A DNA stretch of 64,000 nucleotides from an uncultured Bacilli bacterium (GCA_934096805.1 CAKOMW010000002.1:139736-203735), one strand, 5' to 3'; numbered from the stretch's first letter, positions 899 through 63,050 are shown. The notes: generated by a model not told the origin, from the letters alone. Numbers and translations are program-made.

Positions 899-936
899 GC
901 GACGTTTCTCTATATCAGAGAGACGTCGCTATTTTA
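899..936 (+). terminator. second hairpin terminator (13-bp stem, one mismatch)
   Basis: gcgacgtttctct-atatc-agagagacgtcgc followed by tatttta; GC-rich island in an AT-rich background. Confidence 0.45.
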
Positions 937-1084
937 TTACATATAAAGTTTATGTATTAACATGATGATTATATATAATTGCAATAGGGAGATTATAAAA
1001 AACATTAAGATTGTACAATCTTTCTTGCTCATCATAATAACCACCTCGCTTTCATAGAAAGTGAAGTCAACGCCCAAAGATACG

Positions 1085-1260
1085 TGCATGATGTAACTAT
1101 ATACTATATAAAAGCACAATGCAAATGAGCAAAAATGACATTTGGTATAAAAAACAGTATACAAAATCAAGAATTGCTCTAAGACAAAAATAACTTTTAA
1201 TATAAAAAAAGCATACTAAAAAGTATTGTTTTGTATAAATTAAACAAATTTCTTGAAAAA
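1085..1260. repeat. degenerate solo copy of the Rpn-element leader
   Basis: tataaaagcacaatgcaaatgagc matches the leader core tataaaaacacaatgcaaatgagcaa found upstream of every Rpn-family ORF in the window; no associated ORF. Confidence 0.35.
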
Positions 1261-1581: not shown

Positions 1582-2802
1582 ATGCTAGTAAGTAAATATC
1601 CCATATCAAAAGAAGAAGCATTAAAGTATAATGCAAAAGAAATAAATATAACAAACAATTCTACATGTGATACAGCTTATTATAAAGTAACAATAAAAGA
1701 CTTAGTAAATTCATCTATAAATAAAGATAAGATTAACTATCAAGTAATAGATAAAAGTACAAATACAGAAACAATAGATAAAAACCCAGATAACTTTAAT
1801 ATAAGTGATTCACTTACTAAAGGAAATACCAAAACATATACAATAAGACTATGGATAGATGAAAGTGCAACCAATACAGATTTATTTATAAATGGAAATA
1901 CAACAAAACCAATAGAATATAAATATGCACTTAACATAGAATCAAGTGATGAAGAGATAAAAGGAGCAGGCATGACAGCAACAGAATTTGCCCAAGCAAA
2001 TGTAGGACAAAATGGCCTAGAACTAGTAACTCATACAATAGATAATACCCTTCAAGTAGATAATAAATTTGCAACAGAATATAGATACAGAGGAGGAGAC
2101 TCAGTAGTAAAGAACTATGTAACATTTAATAATGAAATATGGAGAATAATAGGAATAATACCAACTGAAGATACCTCAGGTAATGTAGAAAATAGAATTA
2201 AGATAATAAGAGATACTTCAATAGGAAATATGAAATGGAATACAAATGATACTAATGATTGGACAAGTGCAACTTTAAATACATACTTAAATAATGATTA
2301 TTATAATACGTTAACAAGTGATGCCAAAAACATGATAGGAACAACAAAATACTATCTTGGAGGATATAACTCTGCAGGTATAACATCTGATGTAATGTGG
2401 CAATATGAAAGAAAGAATGATGCTAATCGAAGTGGATATTATTATGGTACAAATCCAATAATGCAAAATGATGCGAATAAAAAGATAGCAATAATGTATG
2501 CCAGTGATTATGGATATGGAGCATCAAAAGAATGTACAAGTAATGTAGGTGATTATGGGAACAATGCAAGTTGTAAAACAACAAATAATTGGTTAGACAA
2601 AAGTCAAGATACATGGTTGCTTCCGCAGTATTCAGACCTTTCCAACTATGCTTTCCGTGTGAACTCGGCTGGCGATGTCAGTAACAACAGCGTCGACGGC
2701 AGCTACGAACGTGCGGTCCGCCCAGTCCTAAGTCTGTCATCTAACGTAAAGATCTCAGGTGGAGAAGGGACTTTCAGTAAACCATACACGTTGTCACAAT
2801 AA
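1582..2802 (+). CDS. Surface protein paralog A with C-terminal C-type-lectin-like domain (currently N-terminally truncated / phase-OFF). The open frame extends back to 1366
   Basis: C-terminal 250 aa about 85-90 percent identical to 49720-51150 (TEYRYRGGDSVVKNYVTFNNE...AVRPVLSLSSNVKISGGEGT); GC-rich 3' end with hypervariable NNC-codon block at 2644-2712. Confidence 0.75.
   Translation: MLVSKYPISKEEALKYNAKEINITNNSTCDTAYYKVTIKDLVNSSINKDKINYQVIDKSTNTETIDKNPDNFNISDSLTKGNTKTYTIRLWIDESATNTDLFINGNTTKPIEYKYALNIESSDEEIKGAGMTATEFAQANVGQNGLELVTHTIDNTLQVDNKFATEYRYRGGDSVVKNYVTFNNEIWRIIGIIPTEDTSGNVENRIKIIRDTSIGNMKWNTNDTNDWTSATLNTYLNNDYYNTLTSDAKNMIGTTKYYLGGYNSAGITSDVMWQYERKNDANRSGYYYGTNPIMQNDANKKIAIMYASDYGYGASKECTSNVGDYGNNASCKTTNNWLDKSQDTWLLPQYSDLSNYAFRVNSAGDVSNNSVDGSYERAVRPVLSLSSNVKISGGEGTFSKPYTLSQ
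2644..2712 (+). other. hypervariable block (DGR VR-like) in copy A
   Basis: 69 nt differing at about half of positions from the equivalent block of copy B, while the following 40 nt are identical; 13 of 23 codons are NNC (aac, ggc, gtc, agc, gac, tac...). Confidence 0.55.
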
Positions 2803-2858: not shown

Positions 2859-3117
2859 TGAGGTTATTCTTTTCGGGGGCCCAAGTAACCTCATATTATT
2901 GTGTCAAAAACAAATGATGAAGACGGAAATATATTGTTTTTTAAAGAGAGTTAGTGGTAGGTGTAAACTAATAAAAAAATATATTTCAGATCACTTCTGA
3001 TGTGTTTTATTAAAAGTAAAAACGGTTACGCGTTATAGTATTGAGTAAAAAAATAAGGTGGTACCACGAACATTTCGTCCTTTGGTAACATCTTTTTATT
3101 TTTAAGGAGGAGTTAAT
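2859..3117 (+). promoter_or_regulatory. T-box riboswitch leader of ileS
   Basis: about 260-nt leader; AGAGA box (ttaaagagagttagtgg), T-box core aaggtggtaccacg at 3055-3068, terminator hairpin plus ctttttattttt before the RBS aaggagg. Confidence 0.7.
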
Positions 3118-6223: not shown

Positions 6224-6267
6224 TTTTATAAAATAAAATGAAGATTGACACTGTTACAAAAAATATA

Positions 6268-6596
6268 TAATTAAGCTATATGAGAAGTTATTATTAATAT
6301 TTAATGAAAATGATAATCAGTTTCTTAAAGATTTAAGTAAGGGTGATGAGATAATGGAAAAGTATGTTAAAGAATCTAAAGAAGTAAGTGAACAAGATGA
6401 AGTAATAGGAATGTATGATAAGGAGTTACATGATGAAAAGCTTCGTTTGGCAGAAAATGATGAGTACAGAGAAAATGGAAAACAAGAAAAAGCTAAAGAA
6501 ACTGCACTTAAAATGCTTCAAGATAATTTAGATTTAGATACTATTTCTAAGTATACTGAACTTTCTATTGAAGAATTAAAGAGTTTACGACAATAG
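6268..6596 (+). pseudogene. 3' fragment of an Rpn/YhgA-like (PD-(D/E)XK, Transposase_31-type) gene, subfamily II
   Basis: frame open from 6249; KLYEKLLLIFNENDNQFLKDLSKGDEIMEKYVKESKEVSEQDEVIGMYDKELHDEKLRLAE is near-identical to the C-terminal third of the intact copy at 38113-39054; the N-terminal two thirds are absent. Confidence 0.7.
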
Positions 6597-12146: not shown

Positions 12147-12223
12147 GGACCCTTAGCTCAGTTGGTTAGAGCATCCGGCTCATAACCGGGAGGTCGTAGG
12201 TTCGAGCCCTACAGGGTCCACCA
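12147..12223 (+). tRNA. tRNA-Met (anticodon CAT; elongator or Ile-lysidine type)
   Basis: cloverleaf ggaccct...agggtcc acceptor, anticodon loop ctCATaa, TpsiC gttcgag, encoded CCA. Confidence 0.85.
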
Positions 12224-12228
12224 TACAT

Positions 12229-12313
12229 GCGGGTATGGCGGAATTGGCAGACGCACTAGACTTAGGATCTAGCGGAGTGATCCATGGGGGTTCAAGTCCC
12301 TTTACCCGCACCA
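12229..12313 (+). tRNA. tRNA-Leu (anticodon TAG) with long variable arm
   Basis: acceptor gcgggta/tacccgc, anticodon loop ctTAGga, long variable arm, GGTTCAAGTCC T-arm, CCA. Confidence 0.85.
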
Positions 12314-15248: not shown

Positions 15249-16292
15249 ATGCTAACATTGATTTTATTTATATTTATTTTAGGTATAATTGTTTTAATTC
15301 ATGAAGGGGGACACTTTCTATTTGCAAAATTAGTAGGCGTTCATGTTTATGAATTCTCTATTGGAATGGGTCCTAAACTTATTCAAAAGATTGCTAAAGA
15401 CGGGACTAAATACTCAATAAGAGCCATTCCTATAGGAGGATTCGTCTCTCTAGCAGGAGAAGAAATAGACGAAAAAGAATTAGAGAAAACAAAAGGGAAT
15501 AATTTACAAGATAAAAAACCATGGCAAAGATTTCTTGTTATGTTCATGGGAGTTGGTTTCAACTTTCTATTTGCTTTTTTAATTCTTATTTTATCTGGTT
15601 TAATATATGGTGCCCCAGATACAAAACCAGTTCTTACTGAAGTAGTAGAAAACTATCCGGCTTACAATGCAGGGTTAAAAAGTGGTGACAAAGTAGTAAG
15701 AATAAATGGACATAAGATAACTTATAAAGAAGATATCTCCTTATATCTAGCAATTGAAGACTTAAATAAACCAGTTGCCTTTGAAGTAATCAGAGAAGAT
15801 GGAACAACTGCCACTTATAATGTACAAGCAGTAAAAGAAAAAACCAATGATACTGATAGATACGTAATGGGTATAGTAATGGGAAGCGAACCTAAACGAG
15901 GACTTATTCCTTCAATTGTATACGGAGTAAATGAAAGCCTTGCTATATTTAAACAAATGTATGTGGTATTAGGAAATCTTTTCACCGGAGGAGTTTCAGT
16001 TAATCAATTAAGTGGCCCAGTTGGCATCTACACAGTAGTAGGACAAATGCAAAGCCAAGGTATCAATGCCTTAATATACTTGATGGCACTTCTAAGCATT
16101 AACGTTGGAGTAATAAACCTTTTACCACTTCCAGCATTTGACGGAGGAAGAATACTATTCCTAATAATAGAAAAAATAAAAGGTAAACCAGTTAGCCCTA
16201 AAGTAGAAAATACTATTCATTCAATTGGATTTATTCTCTTAATACTTTTAATGCTATATGTCACGTTTAATGATATCTTAAGACTATTCTAA
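15249..16292 (+). CDS. rseP: RIP site-2 metalloprotease RseP/RasP
   Basis: HEGGHFLFAK (HExxH), PDZ domain, LPLPAFDGGRI (LDG motif). Confidence 0.9.
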   Translation: MLTLILFIFILGIIVLIHEGGHFLFAKLVGVHVYEFSIGMGPKLIQKIAKDGTKYSIRAIPIGGFVSLAGEEIDEKELEKTKGNNLQDKKPWQRFLVMFMGVGFNFLFAFLILILSGLIYGAPDTKPVLTEVVENYPAYNAGLKSGDKVVRINGHKITYKEDISLYLAIEDLNKPVAFEVIREDGTTATYNVQAVKEKTNDTDRYVMGIVMGSEPKRGLIPSIVYGVNESLAIFKQMYVVLGNLFTGGVSVNQLSGPVGIYTVVGQMQSQGINALIYLMALLSINVGVINLLPLPAFDGGRILFLIIEKIKGKPVSPKVENTIHSIGFILLILLMLYVTFNDILRLF

Positions 16293-16296
16293 ATAT

Positions 16297-16318
16297 AAAA
16301 GCCGATTATGGCTTTTTT
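16297..16318 (+). terminator. terminator after rseP
   Basis: aaaagccgattatggctttttt. Confidence 0.6.
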
Positions 16319-16359
16319 GGTTGCAAAAAGTTTTACAAATGATATAAGGATAAAAAGAT

Positions 16360-17512
16360 AAAAAAGTATAAGTTTTTTAAATTATATATAAAACAATATT
16401 TTTAATAAAAAAATAAGAATCAAATAAGAAAATTCTCTTAAGGGAAATATCTATTTTGGTTCTTTTTTATGTATTTAAAACTTAAAATTACTCATTTGCA
16501 TTGCATTTTTATATGTTATATATTGGTTTTGAAAGGAGGGAAAAGTATGAATCTTATTGGTGATAAGAAAGCTGTTTTAGATAAAGCTATGTCTAAAAAT
16601 GATGCTTATGAACTTGAAGATAGATATGATGGTTATAAAATACCAATTGTATCAGATGCAATGTTTAGAACAATGTTTTATAATGAATCAAGAAAGAAAT
16701 ATGGATGCTATTTAATTGCACTTCTACTAAAGAAAGACTTTAATGAAATCTATAATAATACTACTTTAATAAAAGCTAATATAGATGAAGAAAAAGAAAA
16801 TAAATCTAGAAAGACAGTAGACTATTTATGTAGAATAGATGATGTAGTAGTCAATGTAGAAATGAATAAAAATGCATCCAAGACAAGTTTAGCAAGAAAT
16901 CTAGGTTATATGTTTTCATTATATAATGGTGGAATGACTAAAGGAGATGATTATTTCTTTGAAACTTGTATTCAAATTAACATAAATAACTTTACATTTC
17001 AAGATAAAAACGAAGTATTAGATGAGTATATGATAGTTAATCTAAAAGACAGTGAAGAAGTGTATACAAATAAAATACATATTTATAATATTTACTTGCC
17101 AAATATAAGAAAAAAAGATTATAATAGTCTTGAGGAATATGAGAAGTTATTATTAGTATTTAATGAAAATGATAATAATATTCTTAATGAATTGAGTAAG
17201 GGTGATAAGATTATGAAAGAATATATTGATGATTCTAGAAAAGCAAGTGAACAAGATGAAGTAATAGGCATGTATGACAAAGAGTTGCACGAAGAAAGAT
17301 TAAGAAAATCAGAGTTAAGAGAAGCTAATGAGAATGGAATACAGCAAGGAATACAACAAGGTCGTAGCGAAGGCATCAAAGAAGGTATCGAGAAAACTGC
17401 CCTTAACATGATTCAAAAAAACATTGATTTAAACATCATCTCAGAATGCACAGGTCTTTCATTAGATGAACTAAACAAATTGAAATAGATTAATTTCTAT
17501 TTCTTTTTACTT
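16360..17512 (+). mobile_element. Rpn-family element copy 1 (leader + nuclease gene + 3' hairpin)
   Basis: about 190-bp leader nearly identical (as reverse complement) to the leaders at 39064-39270, 46990-47210, 47690-47868 and 62828-63050; 3' inverted repeat gaaatagattaatttctatttc + T-run at 17482-17510. Confidence 0.65.
16547..17488 (+). CDS. Rpn/YhgA-like recombination-promoting nuclease / putative transposase (PD-(D/E)XK, Transposase_31 type), subfamily I
   Basis: ATG with RBS aaaggaggg; N-terminal IPIVSDAMFRTMF and VDYLCRIDDVVVNVEMNKN (D...E.K PD-(D/E)XK-like) and a C-terminal G-rich repeat GIQQGIQQGRSEGIKEGIEK followed by TGLSLDELNKL, typical of Rpn proteins. The ORF-track start at 16469 includes leader sequence. 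Confidence 0.65.
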   Translation: MNLIGDKKAVLDKAMSKNDAYELEDRYDGYKIPIVSDAMFRTMFYNESRKKYGCYLIALLLKKDFNEIYNNTTLIKANIDEEKENKSRKTVDYLCRIDDVVVNVEMNKNASKTSLARNLGYMFSLYNGGMTKGDDYFFETCIQININNFTFQDKNEVLDEYMIVNLKDSEEVYTNKIHIYNIYLPNIRKKDYNSLEEYEKLLLVFNENDNNILNELSKGDKIMKEYIDDSRKASEQDEVIGMYDKELHEERLRKSELREANENGIQQGIQQGRSEGIKEGIEKTALNMIQKNIDLNIISECTGLSLDELNKLK

Positions 17513-17537
17513 GCTTATTAAATGTTTTATCAAAGTA

Positions 17538-18833
17538 TTACTTCTGCTTCAAATTCTTTTTAATAATCAAATACTGATATGTTGTAATAAATAGGAACTG
17601 TAACAAATAAGCAATTAATAAAGCATACATATTTATATTTAGGAATAAGAGTAAGAACAAAACAATATTTTTGATAATATTACTAAACAAATTAGAGTAC
17701 ATAACGTTTTTACTCTTATTCATAGCTAAAAGAGCAGTAGCAAGTGGTCCTTGCACATATGATATTAAAAATATTATACAAGCTAGAAATAAATAATTAA
17801 GACCAATACTTTCATTGAATAAAAGCCTCATTATTGTATCTGGAAATATAAGCAATATTATTGAACATGGTATACCTATAAGTAAACTAAAAGATATTCC
17901 TTGAATAATTTTACGTTTAATTGCTTTATAGTTCTTTTCTTCATTATACTTAGTAAGAGTAGGGAGTAATGCATTACTAATCGCACCACTAAAGAAACAA
18001 GGGAGAGTTACCATAGGTATAACATACCCTGTTATGATACCATATTCTGATGTTATATATGAATTGCTATAACCTAACTTCAGAAGAACAAACGTAATAA
18101 TAATAGGTTCTAGAAACATACTAAGAGAAGATATTAATCTACCAGCAGTCGTAGGAATAGAAATGCTCATTAAATCCCTCATGTCATTAGGATCAATTAT
18201 AATATCACTTTTATGAATAGTTACTTTTTTAGGCAAAAATAGAAATAATATAAATATTGAAGCTAACTCACTTATAACATTATACAAAACAATACCACTT
18301 ATACACACTATTAAACCATACTGTAATAAATAAGGAGTTATTACAATAGTTATAATAATTCTTACAATCTGTTCAAATAAATTAGAAATAGTATGAGGGA
18401 CCATTCTTTCTTTACCAAAAAAATATCCTCTAGCAATACTAGATAAAGTAATAAAAGGAAGAGTAAAACTTATACATAATATAGGATAATATAAATCTTT
18501 ATTAGCAAGTAAATTATTACTAATAAAAGGACTTAATACTATTAATACTAAAATAATAAATATATCAAATAAAATAGCTATAGGTATAATACCAAAGACT
18601 ATTTTTTTATTATTTCTTTTGTTTTCAGATACAAGTTTGCTAATAGCAATAGGTAAGCTTAAAGTACATATTGTAATAAATAATGTAAAAGTAGGCATTA
18701 TCATCATATAAAGACCTATTCCTTCAACACCAATATATCTAGTAGTTATAATTCTAATTACTAAAGATAATATTTTAGTAATAAAACCACCAATAATAAG
18801 AATAATTGTAGACTTAATAAACTTATCTTTCAT
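17538..18833 (-). CDS. MOP-superfamily polysaccharide flippase (SpoVB/MurJ-like)
   Basis: 431 aa, about 12 TM segments, N-terminal KSTIILIIGGFITKILSLVIRIITTRYIGVEGIGLY resembles SpoVB/MurJ family. Confidence 0.65.
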   Translation of the reverse strand: MKDKFIKSTIILIIGGFITKILSLVIRIITTRYIGVEGIGLYMMIMPTFTLFITICTLSLPIAISKLVSENKRNNKKIVFGIIPIAILFDIFIILVLIVLSPFISNNLLANKDLYYPILCISFTLPFITLSSIARGYFFGKERMVPHTISNLFEQIVRIIITIVITPYLLQYGLIVCISGIVLYNVISELASIFILFLFLPKKVTIHKSDIIIDPNDMRDLMSISIPTTAGRLISSLSMFLEPIIITFVLLKLGYSNSYITSEYGIITGYVIPMVTLPCFFSGAISNALLPTLTKYNEEKNYKAIKRKIIQGISFSLLIGIPCSIILLIFPDTIMRLLFNESIGLNYLFLACIIFLISYVQGPLATALLAMNKSKNVMYSNLFSNIIKNIVLFLLLFLNINMYALLIAYLLQFLFITTYQYLIIKKNLKQK

Positions 18834-38087: not shown

Positions 38088-39270
38088 AGACAAAAAAAGA
38101 AATAGAAATAATCTATTTCAATTGGTTTAGTTCCTCTAATGAAAGACCTGTACATTCTGAAATATCAGTAATATCATAACCTTTTTGAAGCATTTTAAGT
38201 GCAGTTTCTTTGATGCCTTCATCATGTCCTATATCGTGTCCTTCTTTAAAGCCTTTTTCTCTGTACTCATCAATTTCCGCTAAACGAAGCTTTTCATCAT
38301 GTAACTCTTTATCATACATTCCTATTACTTCATCTTGTTCACTTGCTTCTTTTGATTCTTTAACATACTTTTCCATTATCTCATCACCCTTACTTAAATC
38401 TTTAAGAAGTTGATTATCATTTTCATTAAATATTAATAATAACTTCTCATATAGTTTAAGTTTATTATAATCTTTTTTTCTTATATTTGGCAAGTATATA
38501 TTAATAATTCTTATCTTATTACTATATATTTGAAAATCATTAATATCTTTGGGTATATGATTAATATTTGTTATATAGCATTCTTCTAGAACATCTTTTC
38601 TACCTCTGAATCTAAAGTTATTTATGTTTATTTGAATTACTTCATTAAAGTTATACTTCTTTCCTCTTTTCATATTTGCACTATATAAAGAAAACATATA
38701 ACCTAGATTTCTTTCTAAACTAGACTTTGAAGTATTATTATTAACTTCAACATTAAGTATCTTACCTTTAATCTTACACAATAAATCTACTGTCTTATTA
38801 CTTTCTTCATTTTTATACTTATCTATATTATTTTTTATAAACTTAGTATTTTTTAATACCTCATTATAATCCTCATTAAATATAGAAGCAATTAAATAAC
38901 AGATATACTCCATTCTAGATTCATTATTAATCATAGTCTTAAACATAGAATCAGATACAATTGGTATTTTATAGCCTTTGTAATAGTCAAGTAACTTATA
39001 ACTATTTGTTTTAGATATTTCTTTATCTAAAGTACATTCTCTAAGATCTAACATAATTTTCACCTCCTTTCATAGAAATATTTACCCCTTTTCTAATTCA
39101 ATATATACCATATAAAAACGCAATGCAAATGAACAATTTTAAGTTTTAAATACACAAAAAAGAACCAAAACAGATATTTTCCTTAAGGGAATTTTCTTAT
39201 TTGATTCTTATTTTTTTATTAAAAATATTGTTTTATATAGAATTTAAAAAACTTATACTTTTTAATTACT
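38088..39270 (-). mobile_element. Rpn-family element copy 2 (subfamily II)
   Basis: same leader (39064-39270) and 3' hairpin gaaatagaaataatctatttc (38099-38119) + T-run as the other copies. Confidence 0.6.
38113..39054 (-). CDS. Rpn/YhgA-like PD-(D/E)XK nuclease / putative transposase, subfamily II
   Basis: IPIVSDSMFKTMINNE, VDLLCKIKGKILNVEVNNN, C-terminal GFKEGHDIGHDEGIKE...TGLSLEELNQLK; ATG 7 nt after aggaggtg. Confidence 0.6.
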   Translation of the reverse strand: MLDLRECTLDKEISKTNSYKLLDYYKGYKIPIVSDSMFKTMINNESRMEYICYLIASIFNEDYNEVLKNTKFIKNNIDKYKNEESNKTVDLLCKIKGKILNVEVNNNTSKSSLERNLGYMFSLYSANMKRGKKYNFNEVIQININNFRFRGRKDVLEECYITNINHIPKDINDFQIYSNKIRIINIYLPNIRKKDYNKLKLYEKLLLIFNENDNQLLKDLSKGDEIMEKYVKESKEASEQDEVIGMYDKELHDEKLRLAEIDEYREKGFKEGHDIGHDEGIKETALKMLQKGYDITDISECTGLSLEELNQLK

Positions 39271-45199: not shown

Positions 45200-45886
45200 C
45201 TAGTTCTTAAGAATAACAGTTTTTAATTTATTTATAACTTTTTTCTCTATTCTAGATATATAAGATTGACTTATTTTTAATTTATCTGCAACATCTTTCT
45301 GAGTCATTTCAGAATACCCATAAAGACCATATCTTAAACACATTATTTCTTTATCTCTAGAATCAAGTTTTTCTAATTCATTTCTTAATAATTGCTTATC
45401 AAGCTCTTCATCAAGAGGTTTAGTAACTATATCTTTTTCTGTTCCTAAAATATCTTCAAGATGTAGTTCATTTCCATCGGCATCAAAACTCAAAGACTCT
45501 TCAAAAGAAATATCTGTTTTGCTTTTTTTTGTTTTTCTAAGAAACATTAGAATTTCATTATCTATACATCTAGAACAATAAGTAGCTAATCTAATATTTT
45601 TATCTTTAGAAAAAGTGTTAATTCCTTTGATTAATCCTATTGAACCAATACTTACTAAATCCTCTAAATCAACTTTAGTATTTTCATATCTTTTAGCTAG
45701 AAAGACCACTAATCTTAAGTTGTGTTCAATTAACTTGTTTCTAGCAGAGTTATCTCCTTTAAAAGATAAATCAATCAGTTTATCTTCTTCCTCTCTTTCA
45801 AGTGGAGGAGGTAAAATATCCGTTGCACCTACATAAAAGATATTATTTTTTCTAAATAATCTTTTTAAAAATATTATAAACTTCAC
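45200..45886 (-). CDS. sigE: RNA polymerase sporulation sigma factor SigE (pro-sigma-E); GTG start
   Basis: YVGATDILPPPLEREEEDKL pro-sequence junction, LIEHNLRLVVFLAKRYEN, DLVSIGSIGLIKGINTF, ISQSYISRIEKKV; colinear with B. subtilis SigE. Confidence 0.85.
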   Translation of the reverse strand: MKFIIFLKRLFRKNNIFYVGATDILPPPLEREEEDKLIDLSFKGDNSARNKLIEHNLRLVVFLAKRYENTKVDLEDLVSIGSIGLIKGINTFSKDKNIRLATYCSRCIDNEILMFLRKTKKSKTDISFEESLSFDADGNELHLEDILGTEKDIVTKPLDEELDKQLLRNELEKLDSRDKEIMCLRYGLYGYSEMTQKDVADKLKISQSYISRIEKKVINKLKTVILKN

Positions 45887-45889
45887 TGT

Positions 45890-46003
45890 ATCATCTCCCT
45901 ATGCAAAATTATATCAACATCTCCTAGTAAAAATTTGTCATTTGATAAACCAATTAATACATTATATTTATAACCAATATCTTTTATGAATATTTTATCA
46001 ATA
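45890..46003 (-). pseudogene. duplicated 3' end of spoIIGA (114 bp, 2 mismatches versus 47875-47988) retained directly upstream of sigE
   Basis: seen directly; encodes ...IDKIFIKDIGYKYNVLIGLSNDKFLLGDVDIILHREMIQ* whose TGA overlaps the sigE GTG; contains the sigE RBS agggag. Confidence 0.8.
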
Positions 46004-47210
46004 ATATTCACTTTTTATTCATAAAAACAAAAGAAATAGAGATTAATCTATTTCAATTTTTGTAGTTCATCTAATGAAAGACCTGTATATTTGGAAACAA
46101 CTTCTAAATCAACATTATCTTGAATCATTTGTTTAGCTATGCTTACTCTTTCTTCTTTTCTGCCTTCGCTACGACCTTGTTGTATTCCTTGTTGTATTCC
46201 ATTCTCATTAGCTTCTCTTATCTCTGATTTTCTTAATCTTTCTTCGTGTAACTCCTTATCATACATGCCTATTACTTCATCTTCTTCACTTGCTTTTCTA
46301 GAATCATCAATATATTCTTTCATAATCTTATCACCCTTACTTAATTCATTAAGAATATTATTATCATTTTCATTAAATACTAATAATAACTTCTCATATT
46401 CCTCAAGTTTATTATAATCTTTTTTTCTTATATTTGGCAAGTAAATATTATAAATATGTATTTTATTTGTATACACTTCTTCACTGTCTTTTAGATTAAC
46501 TATCATATACTCATCTAATACTTCGTTTTTATCTTGAAATGTAAAGTTATTTATGTTAATTTGAATACAAGTTTCAAAGAAATAATCATCTCCTTTAGTC
46601 ATTCCACCATTATATAATGAAAACATATAACCTAGATTTCTTGCTAAACTTGTCTTGGATGCATTTTTATTCATTTCTACATTGACTACTACATCATCTA
46701 TTCTACATAAATAGTCTACTGTCTTTCTAGATTTATTTTCTTTTTCTTCATCTATATTAGCTTTTATTAAAGTAGTATTATTATAGATTTCATTAAAGTC
46801 TTTCTTTAGTAGAAGTGCAATTAAATAGCATCCATATTTCTTTCTTGATTCATTATAAAACATTGTTCTAAACATTGCATCTGATACAATTGGTATCTTA
46901 TAACCTTCATATCTTTTTTCAAGTTCATAGGCATCTTTTTCAGACATAGCTTTATCTAAAACAGCTTTCTTATTACCAATAAGATTCATACTTTTCCCTC
47001 CTTTCAAAACCACTATATACCATATAAAAACACAATGCAAATGAGTAATTTTAAGTTTTGAACATAGAAAAAAGAACCAAAATAGGTATTTCACTTAAGG
47101 GAATTTTTTATTTTGATTCTTATTTTTTATCAAAAATATTGTTTTATATATAATTTAAAAAACTTATACTTTTTTATTCTTTTTATAAGTATCAATCAAT
47201 ACTTAGAGTG
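46004..47210 (-). mobile_element. Rpn-family element copy 3 inserted between spoIIGA and sigE
   Basis: 3' hairpin gaaatagagattaatctatttc 46033-46054 + T-run; leader 46990-47210 including ttataagtatcaatcaatacttagagtg. Confidence 0.65.
46048..46989 (-). CDS. Rpn/YhgA-like PD-(D/E)XK nuclease / putative transposase, subfamily I
   Basis: about 95 percent identical to 16547-17488 and 61874-62827 except in the C-terminal G-rich repeat region (GIQQGIQQGRSEGRKEERVSIAKQ). Confidence 0.65.
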   Translation of the reverse strand: MNLIGNKKAVLDKAMSEKDAYELEKRYEGYKIPIVSDAMFRTMFYNESRKKYGCYLIALLLKKDFNEIYNNTTLIKANIDEEKENKSRKTVDYLCRIDDVVVNVEMNKNASKTSLARNLGYMFSLYNGGMTKGDDYFFETCIQININNFTFQDKNEVLDEYMIVNLKDSEEVYTNKIHIYNIYLPNIRKKDYNKLEEYEKLLLVFNENDNNILNELSKGDKIMKEYIDDSRKASEEDEVIGMYDKELHEERLRKSEIREANENGIQQGIQQGRSEGRKEERVSIAKQMIQDNVDLEVVSKYTGLSLDELQKLK

Positions 47211-47325
47211 TATGAATTAAAGTAGTGCAATCATTTTCCTTATCCTACTTAATAAGTATTAACAATCTTTTTATTAAACTTAAATATTTTTTTATAAAAT
47301 AATTTAAAAAGACAATGTTACTTTT

Positions 47326-47526
47326 TTATTTTATTATTTGCCAATAGCCTGTTTTATCAGAGCCAACTCTTTCAATTACCGAATTATCAATTAATATTTT
47401 AAAATTTCTTTTAATTGTTCTTGCATTAACATTAGTTATATCAGCTATTTCATTTATAGCATTTAATATATTATCCATCTCATTATCAATATAATATATT
47501 GGTTTTATTTCATCAAATAAATTCAT
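47326..47526 (-). pseudogene. orphan C-terminal winged-HTH fragment (Fic/AlbA_2-associated HTH type)
   Basis: 66 aa ...NVNARTIKRNFKILIDNSVIERVGSDKTGYWQIIK with no upstream catalytic domain. Confidence 0.4.
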
Positions 47527-47560
47527 TTATATCACACCACATATAATATTAGTATATCAC

Positions 47561-47584
47561 AAATGTCACTGTAAATGTCACTGT
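47561..47584. repeat. tandem 12-mer direct repeat (aaatgtcactgt x2)
   Basis: seen directly. Confidence 0.5.
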
Positions 47585-47689
47585 ATTTATAATTCTTTGT
47601 TATAGTTAACCAATTTCATGATATATACATATCAGTTAGTAATTTATTACTAACTATAATTTAGATAATTAAAAGTTGTCCTGCTTTAA

Positions 47690-47868
47690 TCTTTCAATAA
47701 CAATATATACCATATAAAAACACAATGCAAATGAGCAATTTTAAGTTTTGAATACATAAAAAAGAATCAAAATAGATATTTCCCTTAAGGGAATTTTCTT
47801 ATTTGATTCTTATTTTTTTATTAAAAATACTGTTTTATATAGAATTTAAGAAACTTACACTTTTTTCT
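47690..47868 (-). repeat. solo Rpn-element leader abutting the spoIIGA stop codon
   Basis: ccatataaaaacacaatgcaaatgagcaattttaag...tttcccttaagggaattttcttatttgattc matches the other leaders; no downstream nuclease ORF. Confidence 0.6.
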
Positions 47869-47870
47869 AA

Positions 47871-48644
47871 CTACATCATCTCCCTATGCAAAATTATATC
47901 AACATCCCCTAGTAAAAATTTGTCATTTGATAAACCAATTAATACATTATATTTATAACCAATATCTTTTATGAAGATTTTATCAATAAAAAAACATTTC
48001 ATCAAACCATTGCCACTTATAGTATTATAGGGAACGTATATATACTTATCACTTTCTAAATTAATATTTTTATTAAGCACTAAAATAGGTTTATCAAAAT
48101 ATGGGTCATATAAATTATTACCAGTATCTAAATAACCAATTAAATTTAAAATATCAGAGCCATTATATAAAGTAACACTATAAAGATTAGATAAATTATT
48201 CTTATAACTTTTACTAAGACGAACATACAAAACTATTATAAAAATAGAAACCATTAAAATTAAAATATTATTTAAAGAAAAACCATTAGTAAAGAAAATA
48301 ACTCCCGAAGATGCTTCCCCTCTTTCAATATTAATTAAATATAAAGAACCACCAAGAATAATAGAAAGCACTATTAAATAAACAAGATTAATAAATGTAT
48401 ATTTAATACTTTTATAAGAAAAAGTAATTATAAGCATAACAATTCCTAAAAACATTTTAATAAAAAAGAATAGTAACCCTCCAATAGATAAAAAAAGAAT
48501 AAAAACAGATAATCCTCCAAACAAAGCACCAAGTATTATTCTTTTTAACTTAGCATTTCTTTTTAAAATAGTATTTATTCCATAAAGAATAATAAAATCA
48601 AATAAAAAATTAATAAAAAAAACATAATCTAAGTATATAGTCAT
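47871..48644 (-). CDS. spoIIGA: sigma-E processing peptidase SpoIIGA
   Basis: MTIYLDYVFFINFLFDFIILYGINTILKR N-terminus and aspartic protease motif GYLDTGNNLYDP, both colinear with B. subtilis SpoIIGA. Confidence 0.8.
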   Translation of the reverse strand: MTIYLDYVFFINFLFDFIILYGINTILKRNAKLKRIILGALFGGLSVFILFLSIGGLLFFFIKMFLGIVMLIITFSYKSIKYTFINLVYLIVLSIILGGSLYLINIERGEASSGVIFFTNGFSLNNILILMVSIFIIVLYVRLSKSYKNNLSNLYSVTLYNGSDILNLIGYLDTGNNLYDPYFDKPILVLNKNINLESDKYIYVPYNTISGNGLMKCFFIDKIFIKDIGYKYNVLIGLSNDKFLLGDVDIILHREMM

Positions 48645-49719: not shown

Positions 49720-51150
49720 TCAACTGATACTAAGAGTATACGGACTACTTGAAGTTCCTTCTCCACCTGAAATCTTTACGTTAGATGACAGACTTAGGAC
49801 TGGGCGGACCGCAAACTCGTAGTTGTAGAAGTAGTTGGCGTTAAGGACACCGCCGGCATCAGCAACAAGGAAAGCGCCGTGGGAAATGTCTGAATACTGC
49901 GGAAGTAACCATGTATCTGCACTTTTATCTAACCAATTATTTGTTGTTTTACAACTTGCAGAGTTATTATATTTATATAAGTTCTGTGTACATTCTTTTG
50001 ATGCTCCATATCCATAATCACTTGCATACATTATAGCTATCTTTTTAGATGAATCACTTTGCATTATTGGATTTGTTCCATAATAATATCCTGTTCTATT
50101 GGCATCATTCTTTCTTTCATATTGCCACATTACATCTGATGTAATTTCTGGATAATTATTATATCCTCCAAGATAATATTTTGTTGTACCTATCATGTTT
50201 TTTGCATCAGTAGTCAAGGTATTATAATAATCATTATTTAAGTATGTATTTAATGTTGCAGTTGTCCAGTTATTTGTAATTTTTGTAGTCCAATGCATAT
50301 TCCCTATGGATTCATTTCTTACTATTTTAATTCTATTTTCTACATTGCCATCTGTATCTTCAGTAGGAATTACTCCGATGATTCTCCATACCTCATTGTT
50401 AAATGTTACATAGTTTTTTACTACTGAGTCTCCTCCCCTGTATCTGTACTCTGTAGCAAAGTTGTCATCTACTTGGAGAGTATCATCTATTCCGTGAGTA
50501 ATTTTTTCAATACCATTTGTGCCTACTGGTATATTTAATAATGGTACCATTTCTTTTGGAGCATCCTCATTATTCACATTAACTCTAAACTTATAACTAT
50601 AAGTAGCTTTGTTAAGTTTATCTGCATCAAAGTTATAGTCTAACCAAGCTCTTAGTCTATATGTTGTTTCATGTTCATTTACCGAGGTTGTAAATGTTTC
50701 TTCTTGTGATTTTATTACATAACTATTTAACTTATTTATAGTGGTAGGTCCAGTTACTAATGTTTCTGTATTGTTTTCTACTTTAGTAAGATATACTTTT
50801 ATATTACTATCTGTAAAACTAGTATAATTATTATTAATAGTTAATGGTTCTAAAACTATATTATAATTCATTTTTCTATCTTCATTAGTGGTCATCATAC
50901 TATATACTTTAAATTCAAAGTAATTAGAACTATTAATACCTTTCTTATCACTAGTAGGAAGAACATTAGTAAGACTTATTTCATTTGTTTCAGCATAAGA
51001 CATCTTTACTTGTCCAGTTGTTATTTTATTACCTAAAGTTGCTAAACCTACATTATATACTGCATAACCTGCGAATGATATAACACTAATCATAAAAAGC
51101 GACAGTGTTATCATCATTAATATTTTTTTACTTTTACTCATATTATCCAT
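49720..51150 (-). CDS. Surface protein paralog B with C-terminal C-type-lectin-like domain
   Basis: signal-anchor ILMMITLSLFMISVISFAGYAVYNVG; C-terminal half homologous to copy A; hypervariable block at 49813-49881. Confidence 0.75.
   Translation of the reverse strand: MDNMSKSKKILMMITLSLFMISVISFAGYAVYNVGLATLGNKITTGQVKMSYAETNEISLTNVLPTSDKKGINSSNYFEFKVYSMMTTNEDRKMNYNIVLEPLTINNNYTSFTDSNIKVYLTKVENNTETLVTGPTTINKLNSYVIKSQEETFTTSVNEHETTYRLRAWLDYNFDADKLNKATYSYKFRVNVNNEDAPKEMVPLLNIPVGTNGIEKITHGIDDTLQVDDNFATEYRYRGGDSVVKNYVTFNNEVWRIIGVIPTEDTDGNVENRIKIVRNESIGNMHWTTKITNNWTTATLNTYLNNDYYNTLTTDAKNMIGTTKYYLGGYNNYPEITSDVMWQYERKNDANRTGYYYGTNPIMQSDSSKKIAIMYASDYGYGASKECTQNLYKYNNSASCKTTNNWLDKSADTWLLPQYSDISHGAFLVADAGGVLNANYFYNYEFAVRPVLSLSSNVKISGGEGTSSSPYTLSIS
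49813..49881 (-). other. hypervariable block (DGR VR-like) in copy B
   Basis: 14 of 23 codons NNC (cac, ggc, ttc, gcc, gtc, aac, tac ...); flanked 3' by 40 nt identical to copy A (gcggtccgcccagtcctaagtctgtcatctaacgtaaagat). Confidence 0.55.
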
Positions 51151-60754: not shown

Positions 60755-61741
60755 TTATTTAAGATGCTCCTTTATATAACTTAAAAGCGATACTACTCGA
60801 TCATATTCCATTCTCTTTGGACCAATTATTGCAATCGTTCCTTCATCACCGTCAGTTTTATATTTTGTTTTTATAACAGTCACATCATCATCTAGATTAG
60901 ATTCTTGTCCAATATAAATATTTATATCTCCATCATCCTCAGAAACTGTATCAAACAAAGAAGTATCTTCAAATTTATTAAGAATTTTTTTAATTTTATC
61001 TACGTTGTTAAATTCTGGTTGGTTTAAAATATTATTTTTACCTACAAATGACATATCGTTTTTACTAATCATATCACTAAATACATCGTAGAAAGCATTG
61101 TAGATTATTTCATGTTGTTCAACATATTGATTAATAATTGGTTTTATTTCAAACTCAAGTTTTTTATTAATTTCGTCTATTGGTGTTCCAATAAGCAACT
61201 TATTGATTAACTCTACAGTTTTTTGAATATCTTCATTTGAAACATTTGAAGCTTCAATATTCTTATGTTCAACATGACCTTTATCAGTAACAATAATTGC
61301 TAAAATTTTAAAATCACCAAGAGGTAGAACCTCAACTTTCTTAAGTTTGTTTTCATTGGACTTAGAACCAAGAACAACTGATGTATAATCAGTAAGTTCA
61401 GATATAATAGCAAGACTCTTTTTAATCACATCATTCATTTCTAATTTATTATTATTAAAAATAAGTTGAAGTTTTAATAAGTCATCACCATTCATTTTCT
61501 TGGGCTCCATCAAATTATCTACATAATATCGATAACCCTTTTCACTAGGTATTCTACCTGATGAAACATGAGTCTTTTGTAAATAACCTAGGTCCTCCAA
61601 AGTAGACATATCATTTCTGACTGTAGCACTGGAACAATTAAGTTCATCACATATTAGTTTAGAACCAACTGGATTAACACTCTTAACGTACTCAGTAACA
61701 ATCAGTTGTAGTATTTTTTCCTGTCTCGAAGTTAACATCAT
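60755..61741 (-). CDS. hrcA: heat-inducible transcription repressor HrcA
   Basis: MLTSRQEKILQLIVTEYV winged-helix N-terminus; RBS aaggaggt; precedes grpE-dnaK. Confidence 0.85.
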   Translation of the reverse strand: MMLTSRQEKILQLIVTEYVKSVNPVGSKLICDELNCSSATVRNDMSTLEDLGYLQKTHVSSGRIPSEKGYRYYVDNLMEPKKMNGDDLLKLQLIFNNNKLEMNDVIKKSLAIISELTDYTSVVLGSKSNENKLKKVEVLPLGDFKILAIIVTDKGHVEHKNIEASNVSNEDIQKTVELINKLLIGTPIDEINKKLEFEIKPIINQYVEQHEIIYNAFYDVFSDMISKNDMSFVGKNNILNQPEFNNVDKIKKILNKFEDTSLFDTVSEDDGDINIYIGQESNLDDDVTVIKTKYKTDGDEGTIAIIGPKRMEYDRVVSLLSYIKEHLK

Positions 61742-61748
61742 AACCTCC

Positions 61749-61775
61749 TTTAGCACTCGCTTTTTCCTTGTGCTA
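61749..61775. promoter_or_regulatory. CIRCE operator (imperfect)
   Basis: ttagcactc-gctttttcc-ttgtgctaa versus consensus TTAGCACTC-N9-GAGTGCTAA. Confidence 0.6.
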
Positions 61776-61796
61776 ATTATATTATAATATTATATG

Positions 61797-61823
61797 TTAG
61801 CATTGTCAAGATATGAGTGCTAA
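61797..61823. promoter_or_regulatory. CIRCE operator (second copy)
   Basis: ttagcattg-tcaagatat-gagtgctaa. Confidence 0.65.
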
Positions 61824-61845
61824 TTTTTTTAATTTTTTTTCAATA

Positions 61846-63050
61846 AGTGTAAAATAAAAGAAATAGAATTAATCTATTTCAATTTTTGTAGTTCTTCAAA
61901 TGAAAGACCTGTGCATTCTGAGATGATGTTTAAATCAATGTTTTTTTGAAGTAGTTTAAGAGCAGCTTCTTTAGCTTTTTCTTTTTTTCCTTGCTGTATT
62001 CCTTCTTTGATGCCTTCACTACGACCTTGTTGTATTCCATTCTCATTAGCTTCTCTTAACTCTGATTTTCTTAATCTTTCTTCGTGTAACTCTTTATCAT
62101 ACATTCCTATTACTTCATCTTCTTCACTTGCTCTTCTAGAATCATCAATATATTCTTTCATAATCTTATCACCCTTGCTTAATTCATTAAGAATATTATT
62201 ATCATTTTCATTAAATACTAATAATAACTTCTCATATTCCTCAAGTTTATTATAATCTTTTTTTCTTATATTTGGCAAGTAAATATTATAAATATGTATT
62301 TTATTTGTATACACTTCTTCACTGTCTTTTAGATTAACTATCATATACTCATCTAATACTTCGTTTTTATCTTGAAATGTAAAGTTATTTATGTTAATTT
62401 GAATACAAGTTTCAAAGAAATAATCATCTCCTTTAGTCATTCCACCATTATATAATGAAAACATATAACCTAGATTTCTTGCTAAACTTGTCTTGGATGC
62501 ATTTTTATTCATTTCTACATTGACTACTACATCATCTATTCTACATAAATAGTCTACTGTCTTTCTAGATTTATTTTCTTTTTCTTCATCTATATTAGCT
62601 TTTATTAAAGTAGTATTATTATAGATTTCATTAAAGTCTTTCTTTAGTAGAAGTGCAATTAAATAGCATCCATATTTCTTTCTTGATTCATTATAAAACA
62701 TTGTTCTAAACATTGCATCTGATACAATTGGTATTTTATAACCATCATATCTATCTTCAAGTTCATAAGCATCATTTTTAGACATAGCTTTATCTAAAAC
62801 AGCTTTCTTATCACCAATAAGATTCATACTTTTCCCTCCTTTCAAAACCAATATATAACATATAAAAATGCAATGCAAATGAGTAATTTTAAGTTTTAAA
62901 TACATAAAAAAGAACCAAAATAGATATTTCCCTTAAGAGAATTTTCTTATTTGATTCTTATTTTTTTATTAAAAATATTGTTTTATATATAATTTAAGAA
63001 ACTTATACTTCTTAATTATTTTTATAAGTATTAATCAATACTTAGAGTGT
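61846..63050 (-). mobile_element. Rpn-family element copy 4 inserted between the hrcA promoter/CIRCE region and argS
   Basis: 3' hairpin gaaatagaattaatctatttc 61860-61880; leader 62828-63050 including ttataagtattaatcaatacttagagtg. Confidence 0.65.
61874..62827 (-). CDS. Rpn/YhgA-like PD-(D/E)XK nuclease / putative transposase, subfamily I
   Basis: ATG 62827 with RBS ggaggg; C-terminal repeat variant GIQQGRSEGIKEGIQQGKKEKAKE. Confidence 0.65.
   Translation of the reverse strand: MNLIGDKKAVLDKAMSKNDAYELEDRYDGYKIPIVSDAMFRTMFYNESRKKYGCYLIALLLKKDFNEIYNNTTLIKANIDEEKENKSRKTVDYLCRIDDVVVNVEMNKNASKTSLARNLGYMFSLYNGGMTKGDDYFFETCIQININNFTFQDKNEVLDEYMIVNLKDSEEVYTNKIHIYNIYLPNIRKKDYNKLEEYEKLLLVFNENDNNILNELSKGDKIMKEYIDDSRRASEEDEVIGMYDKELHEERLRKSELREANENGIQQGRSEGIKEGIQQGKKEKAKEAALKLLQKNIDLNIISECTGLSFEELQKLK

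Follow-up and report, generated by a model that had tools for sequence, protein, structure and literature searches.

Multi-copy rpn genes with a predicted upstream terminator and promoter in an uncultured Bacilli bacterium: probable toxin-antitoxin units shuffled by recombination

Why does a single stretch of bacterial DNA hold several related nuclease-like genes, each framed by the same flanking sequences and placed beside genes such as rseP or hrcA? The window, that is the whole stretch of 64 kb analysed here (G+C 26.6%), from an uncultured Bacilli bacterium, raises this question. A first-pass annotation had described a family of mobile Rpn/YhgA-like elements with a conserved leader and a 3' hairpin, accompanied by a 3' fragment and by two leaders without a gene. 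We consider it probable that each copy is a self-contained, insulated rpn gene with a toxin-antitoxin or phage-defence function, and that the copies are shuffled by recombination and not by transposition. For this organism we infer toxicity, antitoxin action, the defence role and the start and stop points of transcription from the literature or from the anatomy of the units.

Four rpn units and the proteins they encode

The window contains four intact open reading frames encoding proteins of 313-317 amino acids, located exactly where they had been annotated; the corresponding units are referred to as c1 to c4 (Table 1). As proposed earlier, the proteins fall into two subfamilies, with c1, c3 and c4 on one side (97-98% identity across about 1 kb in a repeat finding over the window) and c2 on the other; between the two, the nucleotide identity of the coding sequences is 58-76%. 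The neighbours of the four copies are rseP, ddl, argS/hrcA and spoIIGA/sigE, which confirms the sites described beside rseP, hrcA and spoIIGA-sigE and adds ddl. The end of the c4 unit lies upstream of hrcA, about 100 nt from its start. The inverted repeat reported for the 3' end was found in all four copies: it consists of GAAATAGA, 5-6 further nucleotides and TCTATTTC, carries the stop codon within its 5' arm and is followed by a T-run. We predict this hairpin with its T-run to be a weak downstream terminator.

Table 1. Positions of the rpn units and of associated features, counted from the first nucleotide of the window; promoters, terminators and small proteins are predictions.
Feature	Position	Strand	Details
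Rpn unit c1	16361..17507	+	upstream block 16361-16546; rpnL ORF 16547-17488 (313 aa); 3' hairpin 17482-17507
Rpn unit c2 (second subfamily)	38095..39263	-	ORF 38113-39054; repeats GFKE-GHDI-GHDE-GIKE
Rpn unit c3	46029..47257	-	ORF 46048-46989; additional upstream palindrome 47186-47205
Rpn unit c4	61856..63044	-	ORF 61874-62827, 317 aa, one additional 4-aa repeat; upstream palindrome 63025-63044
Upstream hairpin and T6, c1	16415..16468	+	intrinsic-terminator-like; -15.3 kcal/mol, z -3.8
Equivalent upstream hairpins	39156-39209, 47068-47121, 62906-62959, 47758-47811	-	equivalents of the c1 hairpin
Sigma-A type promoter, c1	16496..16524	+	TTGCAT-17-TATATT
Equivalent promoters	39100-39128, 47012-47040, 62850-62878, 47702-47730	-	equivalents of the c1 promoter
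Candidate internal rpnS promoter, c1	17096..17125	+	TTGCCA-18-TATAAT, 11/12 consensus match
Identical internal-promoter 30-mer, other copies	38464-38493, 46411-46440, 62249-62278	-	same sequence in 4/4 copies
Predicted RpnS of c1, 91 aa	17213..17488	+	SD GGGTGAT-N6-ATG at 17200-17215
Internal ATGs, other copies	38374-38376, 46321-46323, 62159-62161	-	conserved SD-ATG arrangement
Four-amino-acid repeat tract, c1	17336..17395	+	GIQQ-GIQQ-GRSE-GIKE-GIEK; hypervariable segment
Stand-alone rpnS-type gene	6245..6596	+	ORF 6354-6596, 80 aa, no 4-aa repeats; SD GGGTGAT at 6341
Promoter-like TTGACA-15-TATAAT of stand-alone rpnS	6245-6271	+	sequence match
Upstream block (47683-47879) and Fic remnant (47326-47526, 66 aa)	47326..47879	-	in-frame deletion of SoFic-type Fic gene
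Duplicated 3' end of spoIIGA (115-120 nt)	45885..46004	-	just upstream of sigE; partner 47870-47989; 97% identity
Promoter core (1098-1129) and 32-aa hydrophobic peptide ORF (937-1035)	937..1129	-	not an Rpn element

All four proteins match PF12784 (PDDEXK_2) at E ~1e-13 and with 49-52 bits against a cut-off of 27.4. The NCBIfam model TIGR01784 ('Rpn family recombination-promoting nuclease/putative transposase') is reached with 67-69 bits (68.7 and 67.2) against a cut-off of 52.1, and at the level of Rpn the family assignment thus stands. The Pfam family that had been named, PF04754 (Transposase_31 / YhgA-like), gave no match at E<=1 for any of the four proteins, so that the search proposed for confirming the family points to PF12784 instead. 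In this respect the window proteins differ from the Rpn proteins of E. coli, as they do in the putative third catalytic residue, which is Asn. An alignment of 22 homologues revealed D92, E105 and N107 to be invariant, and these residues look like the E-x-N version of the PD-(D/E)XK motif. The third active-site position would then be Asn and not Lys or Gln; nuclease activity of the window proteins is predicted, not certain.

In the AlphaFold (AF2) model (pLDDT 72.5) the N-terminal domain is rich in beta strands, and the C-terminal part consists of a 45-residue helix (245-290) followed by two short helices (295-302 and 306-312) with a pLDDT of about 85. The best PDB fold matches of the model are PD-(D/E)XK nucleases (McrC, Shedu), weak ones with E>=0.01; none reached E<=0.001, the crystal structure of RpnA-S was not among the matches, and a PDB search by sequence was uninformative. 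PF27070 (HTH_Rpn_C) is found among the precomputed annotations, and together with the AF2 helices this indicates the presence of the small C-terminal helical/HTH domain, the RpnS part. Scanning the 91-aa and 80-aa C-terminal pieces with hmmscan yielded no match at E<=0.01. Searches for identical proteins gave none for c1 with either start codon and none for hrcA with a GTG start, and the DUF192 protein had its sole match on a contig of 601 nt.

A predicted small protein within the gene and a stand-alone relative

According to the published work on this family (Zhong et al. 2023, PMC10400941), rpn genes encode the toxic DNA endonuclease RpnL, and an internal promoter together with an internal start codon of rpn gives rise to RpnS, a small C-terminal antitoxin. 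The four-amino-acid repeats of RpnS are hypervariable, which is true of C. difficile too, and RpnL is neutralised only by an RpnS of matching repeat number. Separate rpnS genes are known, the copy number of rpn can be high, and phage protection is reported for at least one Rpn protein. Moreover, neither inverted repeats nor target duplications nor fixed ends accompany the gain and loss of rpn genes, and a role as transposase was regarded as unlikely.

Nearly all features flagged in the window are already explained by these hallmarks. Like RpnA-E of E. coli, RpnP2 and the Rpn proteins of Clostridioides difficile (Zhong et al. 2023, PMC10400941; Kingston et al. [quoted passage not shown] A stand-alone rpnS, many copies per genome, gain and loss of single genes without terminal inverted repeats or target-site duplications and an association with other defence genes, here SoFic, are likewise shared with the known systems. 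With the window, the organisms with multi-copy, rapidly diversifying Rpn toxin-antitoxin genes come to include a gut spore-former that is uncultured and very AT-rich (26.6% GC), and the window independently reproduces the variation of the four-residue repeats, the stand-alone antitoxin genes and the imprecise gain and loss.

All four copies share the same sequence of the candidate internal promoter, even c2, which is only 58-76% identical elsewhere. Met223, which would be the internal start, is nearly invariant among the 22 homologues. On the level of sequence, an internal promoter and a start codon that would yield a separate small protein are thus both in place.

The C-terminal G-rich repeats, which had been noticed to differ among the copies, are the four-amino-acid repeats described for RpnS in PMC10400941. 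Between copies that are 100% identical upstream, the nucleotide identity of the tract falls to 41-68%, and the tract varies also between strains at one and the same locus. Homologues have lengths of 305, 309, 313 and 317 amino acids, with insertions and deletions in multiples of four, and the orthologue of c2 in another strain (L015) has no repeats.

The segment at 6265-6596, annotated earlier as a 3' fragment from 6268 onwards, contains an intact ORF for 80 amino acids and is 94% identical to c2. The ORF begins at the Met that serves as internal start in the full-length genes and is preceded by the same SD; the homology to the full genes starts at the -10 of the internal promoter, with a TTGACA upstream. 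From these features the segment reads as a stand-alone rpnS rather than as a fragment. In one relative (L050), rpn is directly followed downstream by an rpnS-type gene.

We suggest that the full-length protein, RpnL, would be a DNA endonuclease of the PD-(D/E)XK type that bears a helical/HTH domain at its C terminus, and that RpnS of about 91 amino acids would be made from TTGCCA-18-TATAAT and GGGTGAT-N6-ATG at Met223. [quoted passage not shown] A toxic enzyme combined with a small HTH-like neutraliser recalls autoregulated type II toxin-antitoxin operons, and the strongly conserved promoter region of the units could act as an operator; unlike in these operons, the antitoxin is encoded within the toxin gene, and a palindromic operator conserved across lineages was not found.

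The block upstream of rpn

Each of the four copies is preceded by a block of about 190 nt, which occurs once more at 47683-47879; the identity ranges from 85 to 100%. The claim that every copy carries the same 5' leader is borne out for this block, not for the first segment quoted for it, ttataagtattaatcaatacttagagtg, which contains a palindrome and was found only upstream of c3 and c4. A pattern of 32 nt representing the promoter core matches the window six times, where chance alone would give 0.00 matches. Scanning a genome collection with this core identified a single true relative, L015, which is an uncultured 'Bacilli' MAG; four further matches are attributable to chance.

The block is mostly made up of a putative upstream terminator and a putative sigma-A promoter, with the SD of rpn about 15 nt beyond the promoter and a predicted 5' UTR of only about 15-45 nt. 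The term 'leader' is therefore misplaced. A generic terminator scan of 16200-17700 found nothing; it missed the hairpins because their stems have fewer than three G-C pairs. At a G/A polymorphism of the stem, the G variant can still pair as U-G in the forward strand but leaves a C-A mismatch in the reverse strand, which indicates that the selected structure is the RNA of the forward strand. The genes upstream retain separate terminators of their own.

We compared the rpn loci of relatives, the proteins of which are 68, 53, 52, 48, 46 and 41% identical to that of c1. These loci lie at unrelated sites, i.e. before gatCAB, after serS, after ezrA and before ffh. Six lineages have a hairpin with a U-run at the equivalent position; the stems comprise four unrelated sequences, the tails are T5-T7, and the dG values range from -6.8 to -15.3 kcal/mol and the z scores from -2.3 to -4.2. 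In all eight lineages, TTGCAT, TTGACA or TTTACA is separated by exactly 17 nt from TATATT or TATAGT, and the sequence of the spacer drifts. The order of elements in the relatives is hairpin with U-run, a conserved element of about 20 nt, and promoter. Hence, the upstream architecture is retained at about 40-68% protein identity and at unrelated genomic sites, and the sequence of the hairpin turns over.

Two parts of the block go beyond what a terminator plus a promoter accounts for, namely its conserved 5' part (AAAAAGTRYAA ... AATTnTATATAAAAyA) and the conserved stretch of about 20 nt upstream of the -35. Two other candidates were rejected: a palindromic operator overlapping the -35 (GTCAnnTGAC), seen in some relatives, is absent from others and not conserved, and a sporulation-sigma promoter in the 5' boxes does not agree with the box spacing, which is not conserved.

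In the mechanism that we favour, the upstream hairpin with its U-run would block read-through from the housekeeping operon, the sigma-A promoter with the conserved block upstream of its -35 and a short 5' UTR would drive rpn, and the weak hairpin and T-run at the stop codon would close the unit. Such an insulation makes sense, in our reading, for a toxic gene located behind rseP, ddl, argS or spoIIGA.

The block is also found outside rpn units. The 'solo leader' of the first-pass annotation is not free-standing debris: it precedes an ORF for 66 amino acids, which is what an in-frame deletion has left of a 322-aa Fic/winged-HTH gene. This gene is intact in other strains, where it sits behind the same upstream block in the spoIIGA-sigE spacer, and it matches the SoFic defence model (PADLOC PDLC03963) with an E value of 2.5e-38. 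SoFic resembles rpn in occupying this spacer in other strains, in its upstream block and in being a single-gene toxic effector too; it differs in the protein, which is unrelated (Fic and winged HTH), and the window has only the 66-aa remnant. The degenerate leader reported at 1085-1260 shares only the promoter core of about 32-45 nt with the rpn units, here in front of a gene for a 32-aa hydrophobic peptide that belongs to a separate small multi-copy family. Homology beyond the core was rejected, since the upstream part does not exceed the AT-rich background: its score was equalled or surpassed by 179 of 2000 controls. From their sequences, the solo leaders and the 3' fragment appear to be functional parts of other genes and not debris.

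These units differ from the published Rpn genes, as far as the accessible parts of PMC10400941 report them, by the conserved upstream terminator and extended promoter region borne by the unit, kept down to about 40% protein identity and found before SoFic too. This is a modest new detail. How RpnL is silenced and released is a stated open question for the Rpn family in the available literature, and the conserved control region is a concrete place to look.

It is conceivable, at a low probability, that the block, with its terminator, the element of about 20 nt, the promoter and the 5' boxes, is a portable regulatory module for toxic or defence genes, containing an operator for a common signal and serving as a homology arm for the exchange of effector ORFs at a fixed site. 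Such a signal could be, for example, autoregulation by RpnS/HTH or a phage- or damage-responsive factor. The block accompanies rpn down to about 40% protein identity and precedes SoFic, and its core stands before the type-I-toxin-like peptide family.

A functional RNA is another reading of the block, either an attenuator or riboswitch-like leader or an antitoxin-like small RNA ending at the hairpin terminator. Between the subfamilies the block is 91-95% identical against 58-76% for the coding sequence, it is recognisable at 52% protein identity, the forward-strand hairpin with its U-run is conserved and the 5' boxes lack an explanation, all of which would suit an RNA. However, no Rfam 15 family reached the gathering threshold anywhere in the window, only noise appeared at E<=5 in 16300-17560, and the fold of the whole block is no better than that of shuffles (z -0.15); a structured-RNA leader thus received no support. 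Duplex energies between leader and mRNA are no better than those of shuffles in eight lineages (z -1.2 to +1.3), and an antisense-type action on the rpn 5' UTR was not supported either. Moreover, by eye there is no credible sigma-A promoter upstream of the hairpin, the spacing of the 5' boxes is not conserved, and a strong predicted promoter follows downstream of the hairpin. We therefore regard a functional RNA as unlikely and retain the terminator and promoter.

Mosaic copies and strain-variable sites

The identity between the copies is unevenly distributed. In sliding comparisons, c1, c3 and c4 are 100% identical over the nuclease domain (16683-17084), with 86-88% between c1 and c3 in the upstream block and 41-68% among the three in the repeat tract. 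The pattern between c1 and c2 is the opposite: 91-95% in the upstream block, 86-90% in the region of the internal promoter, 81-93% in the last 60 nt and 58-76% in between. Two relatives share the same upstream junction and have different Rpn subfamilies and different downstream genes. The copies are mosaics, a structure to be expected, as we infer, from recombination between the conserved segments. In the proposed mechanism, the copies would spread and diversify by recombination between the upstream block, the internal-promoter region and the last 60 or so nucleotides, which would lead to mosaics, to swaps of alleles and to presence/absence differences with imprecise ends.

The adjacency of spoIIGA and sigE is ancestral in sporulating Firmicutes, and the island between them is therefore an insertion. 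A duplication of the 3' end of spoIIGA brackets this island of 1985 bp and is present in all haplotypes. Three haplotypes of the spacer were found among strains: an intact SoFic without Rpn, a SoFic remnant together with Rpn, as in the window, and remnants only. Strains with an intact SoFic have no Rpn unit at this site. Compared with the SoFic haplotype, c3 is an insertion of about 1.25 kb (47257-46004) with ambiguous junctions and no target duplication.

Presence/absence polymorphism was seen at the spoIIGA-sigE site only; each of the 10 strain contigs for the rseP site has the unit, and so have all three contigs for the c2 site. The cross-strain comparison that had been proposed thus gave a polymorphic spoIIGA-sigE site alongside filled rseP and c2 sites. 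It is exactly at unit boundaries, 17508 and 39264, that synteny with other assemblies is lost, in metagenome contigs in which chimeric joins via the 1.2-kb repeat are possible. Terminal inverted repeats, target duplications and precise ends were looked for and not found, and the left ends differ between the copies. Of the claim that the units are mobile elements, the strain differences at spoIIGA-sigE and the breaks at unit boundaries speak in favour, and the lack of repeats, duplications and precise ends, together with the ten filled rseP contigs, against. Among the IMG/VR viral contigs no relatives were found, and relatives on plasmids are at most 30% identical.

The filled rseP and c2 sites would also be expected if the copies were old, fixed paralogues that do not move, remain similar only by gene conversion and are polymorphic by deletion of an ancestral copy; the 100% identity over 400 nt in three copies with diverged flanks is a conversion signature that fits as well. 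We hold this to be quite improbable, since the units of relatives lie at other sites (after serS, after ezrA, before ffh, before gatCAB), one shared upstream junction is followed in two relatives by different Rpn subfamilies and different downstream genes, and the haplotypes with intact SoFic have neither an Rpn unit nor a scar.

The least probable explanation is that the units are autonomous IS-like transposons, with Rpn as transposase and the 5' and 3' hairpins as ends in the manner of IS200/IS605: they do resemble insertion sequences as short single-gene intergenic repeats with hairpins near both ends, in many copies beside housekeeping operons of this genome and of relatives, with one site present or absent, synteny breaks at the unit boundaries 17508 and 39264 and a historical 'putative transposase' annotation of the family, but unlike IS200/IS605 they have no defined ends, terminal inverted repeats or target-site duplications, their left boundary varies between copies, the two hairpins are mutually unrelated, terminator-like, each with a T-run and completely changed in sequence between lineages, a Fic gene, too, has this block in front of it, the protein is no known transposase fold acting on its own, and PMC10400941 draws the same negative conclusion for the Rpn family.

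In our preferred reading, the copies are insulated rpn genes exchanged by recombination. Between spoIIGA and sigE, this species has a small site for defence genes that varies from strain to strain.

Duplicated spoIIGA end and SoFic remnant upstream of sigE

The final 115-120 nt of spoIIGA are present twice (97%) in the window, at 45885-46004 and 47870-47989, where the two copies flank the 2-kb island, the insert between spoIIGA and sigE that carries an Rpn unit. Owing to this duplication, the sequence upstream of sigE is still the native one and the gene keeps its overlapping start. We found the duplicated spoIIGA 3' end in every strain haplotype, and a spoIIGA-sigE junction without the island was not seen in this species. 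In other strains, the spacer holds a SoFic-type Fic/winged-HTH defence gene (L002, 3848-4816; also L004-L006), of which a 66-aa in-frame fusion is left at 47326-47526 of the window, shortened because of a deletion between AAATGAAA microhomologies.

Sequences bordering the Rpn units

Directly beyond the terminator of c4, the intact Rpn unit next to hrcA, the region 61757-61855 holds the intact hrcA promoter (TTGACA-17-TATAAT) together with two CIRCE-like inverted repeats (TTAGCAC...GTGCTAA), which are also intact. The annotated GTG start of hrcA lies within CIRCE, and translation probably begins in reality from the ATG at position 61741.

On the 5' side, a 20-nt near-perfect palindrome, TAAGTATTGATTRATACTTA, at 47186-47205 and 63025-63044, immediately precedes the conserved upstream block. 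It is restricted to c4 and to c3, the unit in the 2-kb island, and is not followed by a T-run. In one locus of another assembly (JABLTK010106767.1, about 215-330) the inner part of the upstream hairpin has the opposite orientation to that in all other copies while the outer arms are the same, which looks like the flip of a quasi-palindrome.

Small hydrophobic peptide module

The module at 835-1130 resembles a type I toxin. Its peptide gene (see table) has a promoter core with the same pattern as the rpn promoter and a conserved 5' UTR reading AGCACGTATCTTTGGGCG... On the + strand there is a convergent promoter-like region, and the transcript predicted from it would begin with a similar AGCACGT... 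sequence. Four further copies, with peptides of 26-27 aa, were found in one metagenome (L029, L030, L038, L040). The module matches no Rfam family.

Peptide-module features and RNA elements in the window
Feature	Position	Strand	Remark
Small-peptide gene, 32-aa hydrophobic ORF	937-1035	-	within the module
Terminator, GC-rich, bidirectional	899-929		belongs to the module
T-box leader	2905-3085		upstream of ileS; 94.9 bits
tRNA-Met/tRNA-Leu pair	12147-12313		

Other repeats

Two DUF6273-like paralogues, at 1582-2802 (+) and 49720-51150 (-), form inverted repeats of 80-85% about 47 kb apart, and a third adjoins the c2 Rpn unit in another assembly (L015). Two 374-aa Rpn homologues (P0109 and P0110; L053 and L054) have the entire C-terminal region, which resembles the predicted small antitoxin RpnS, duplicated in tandem, and their genes adjoin a tyrosine recombinase gene.
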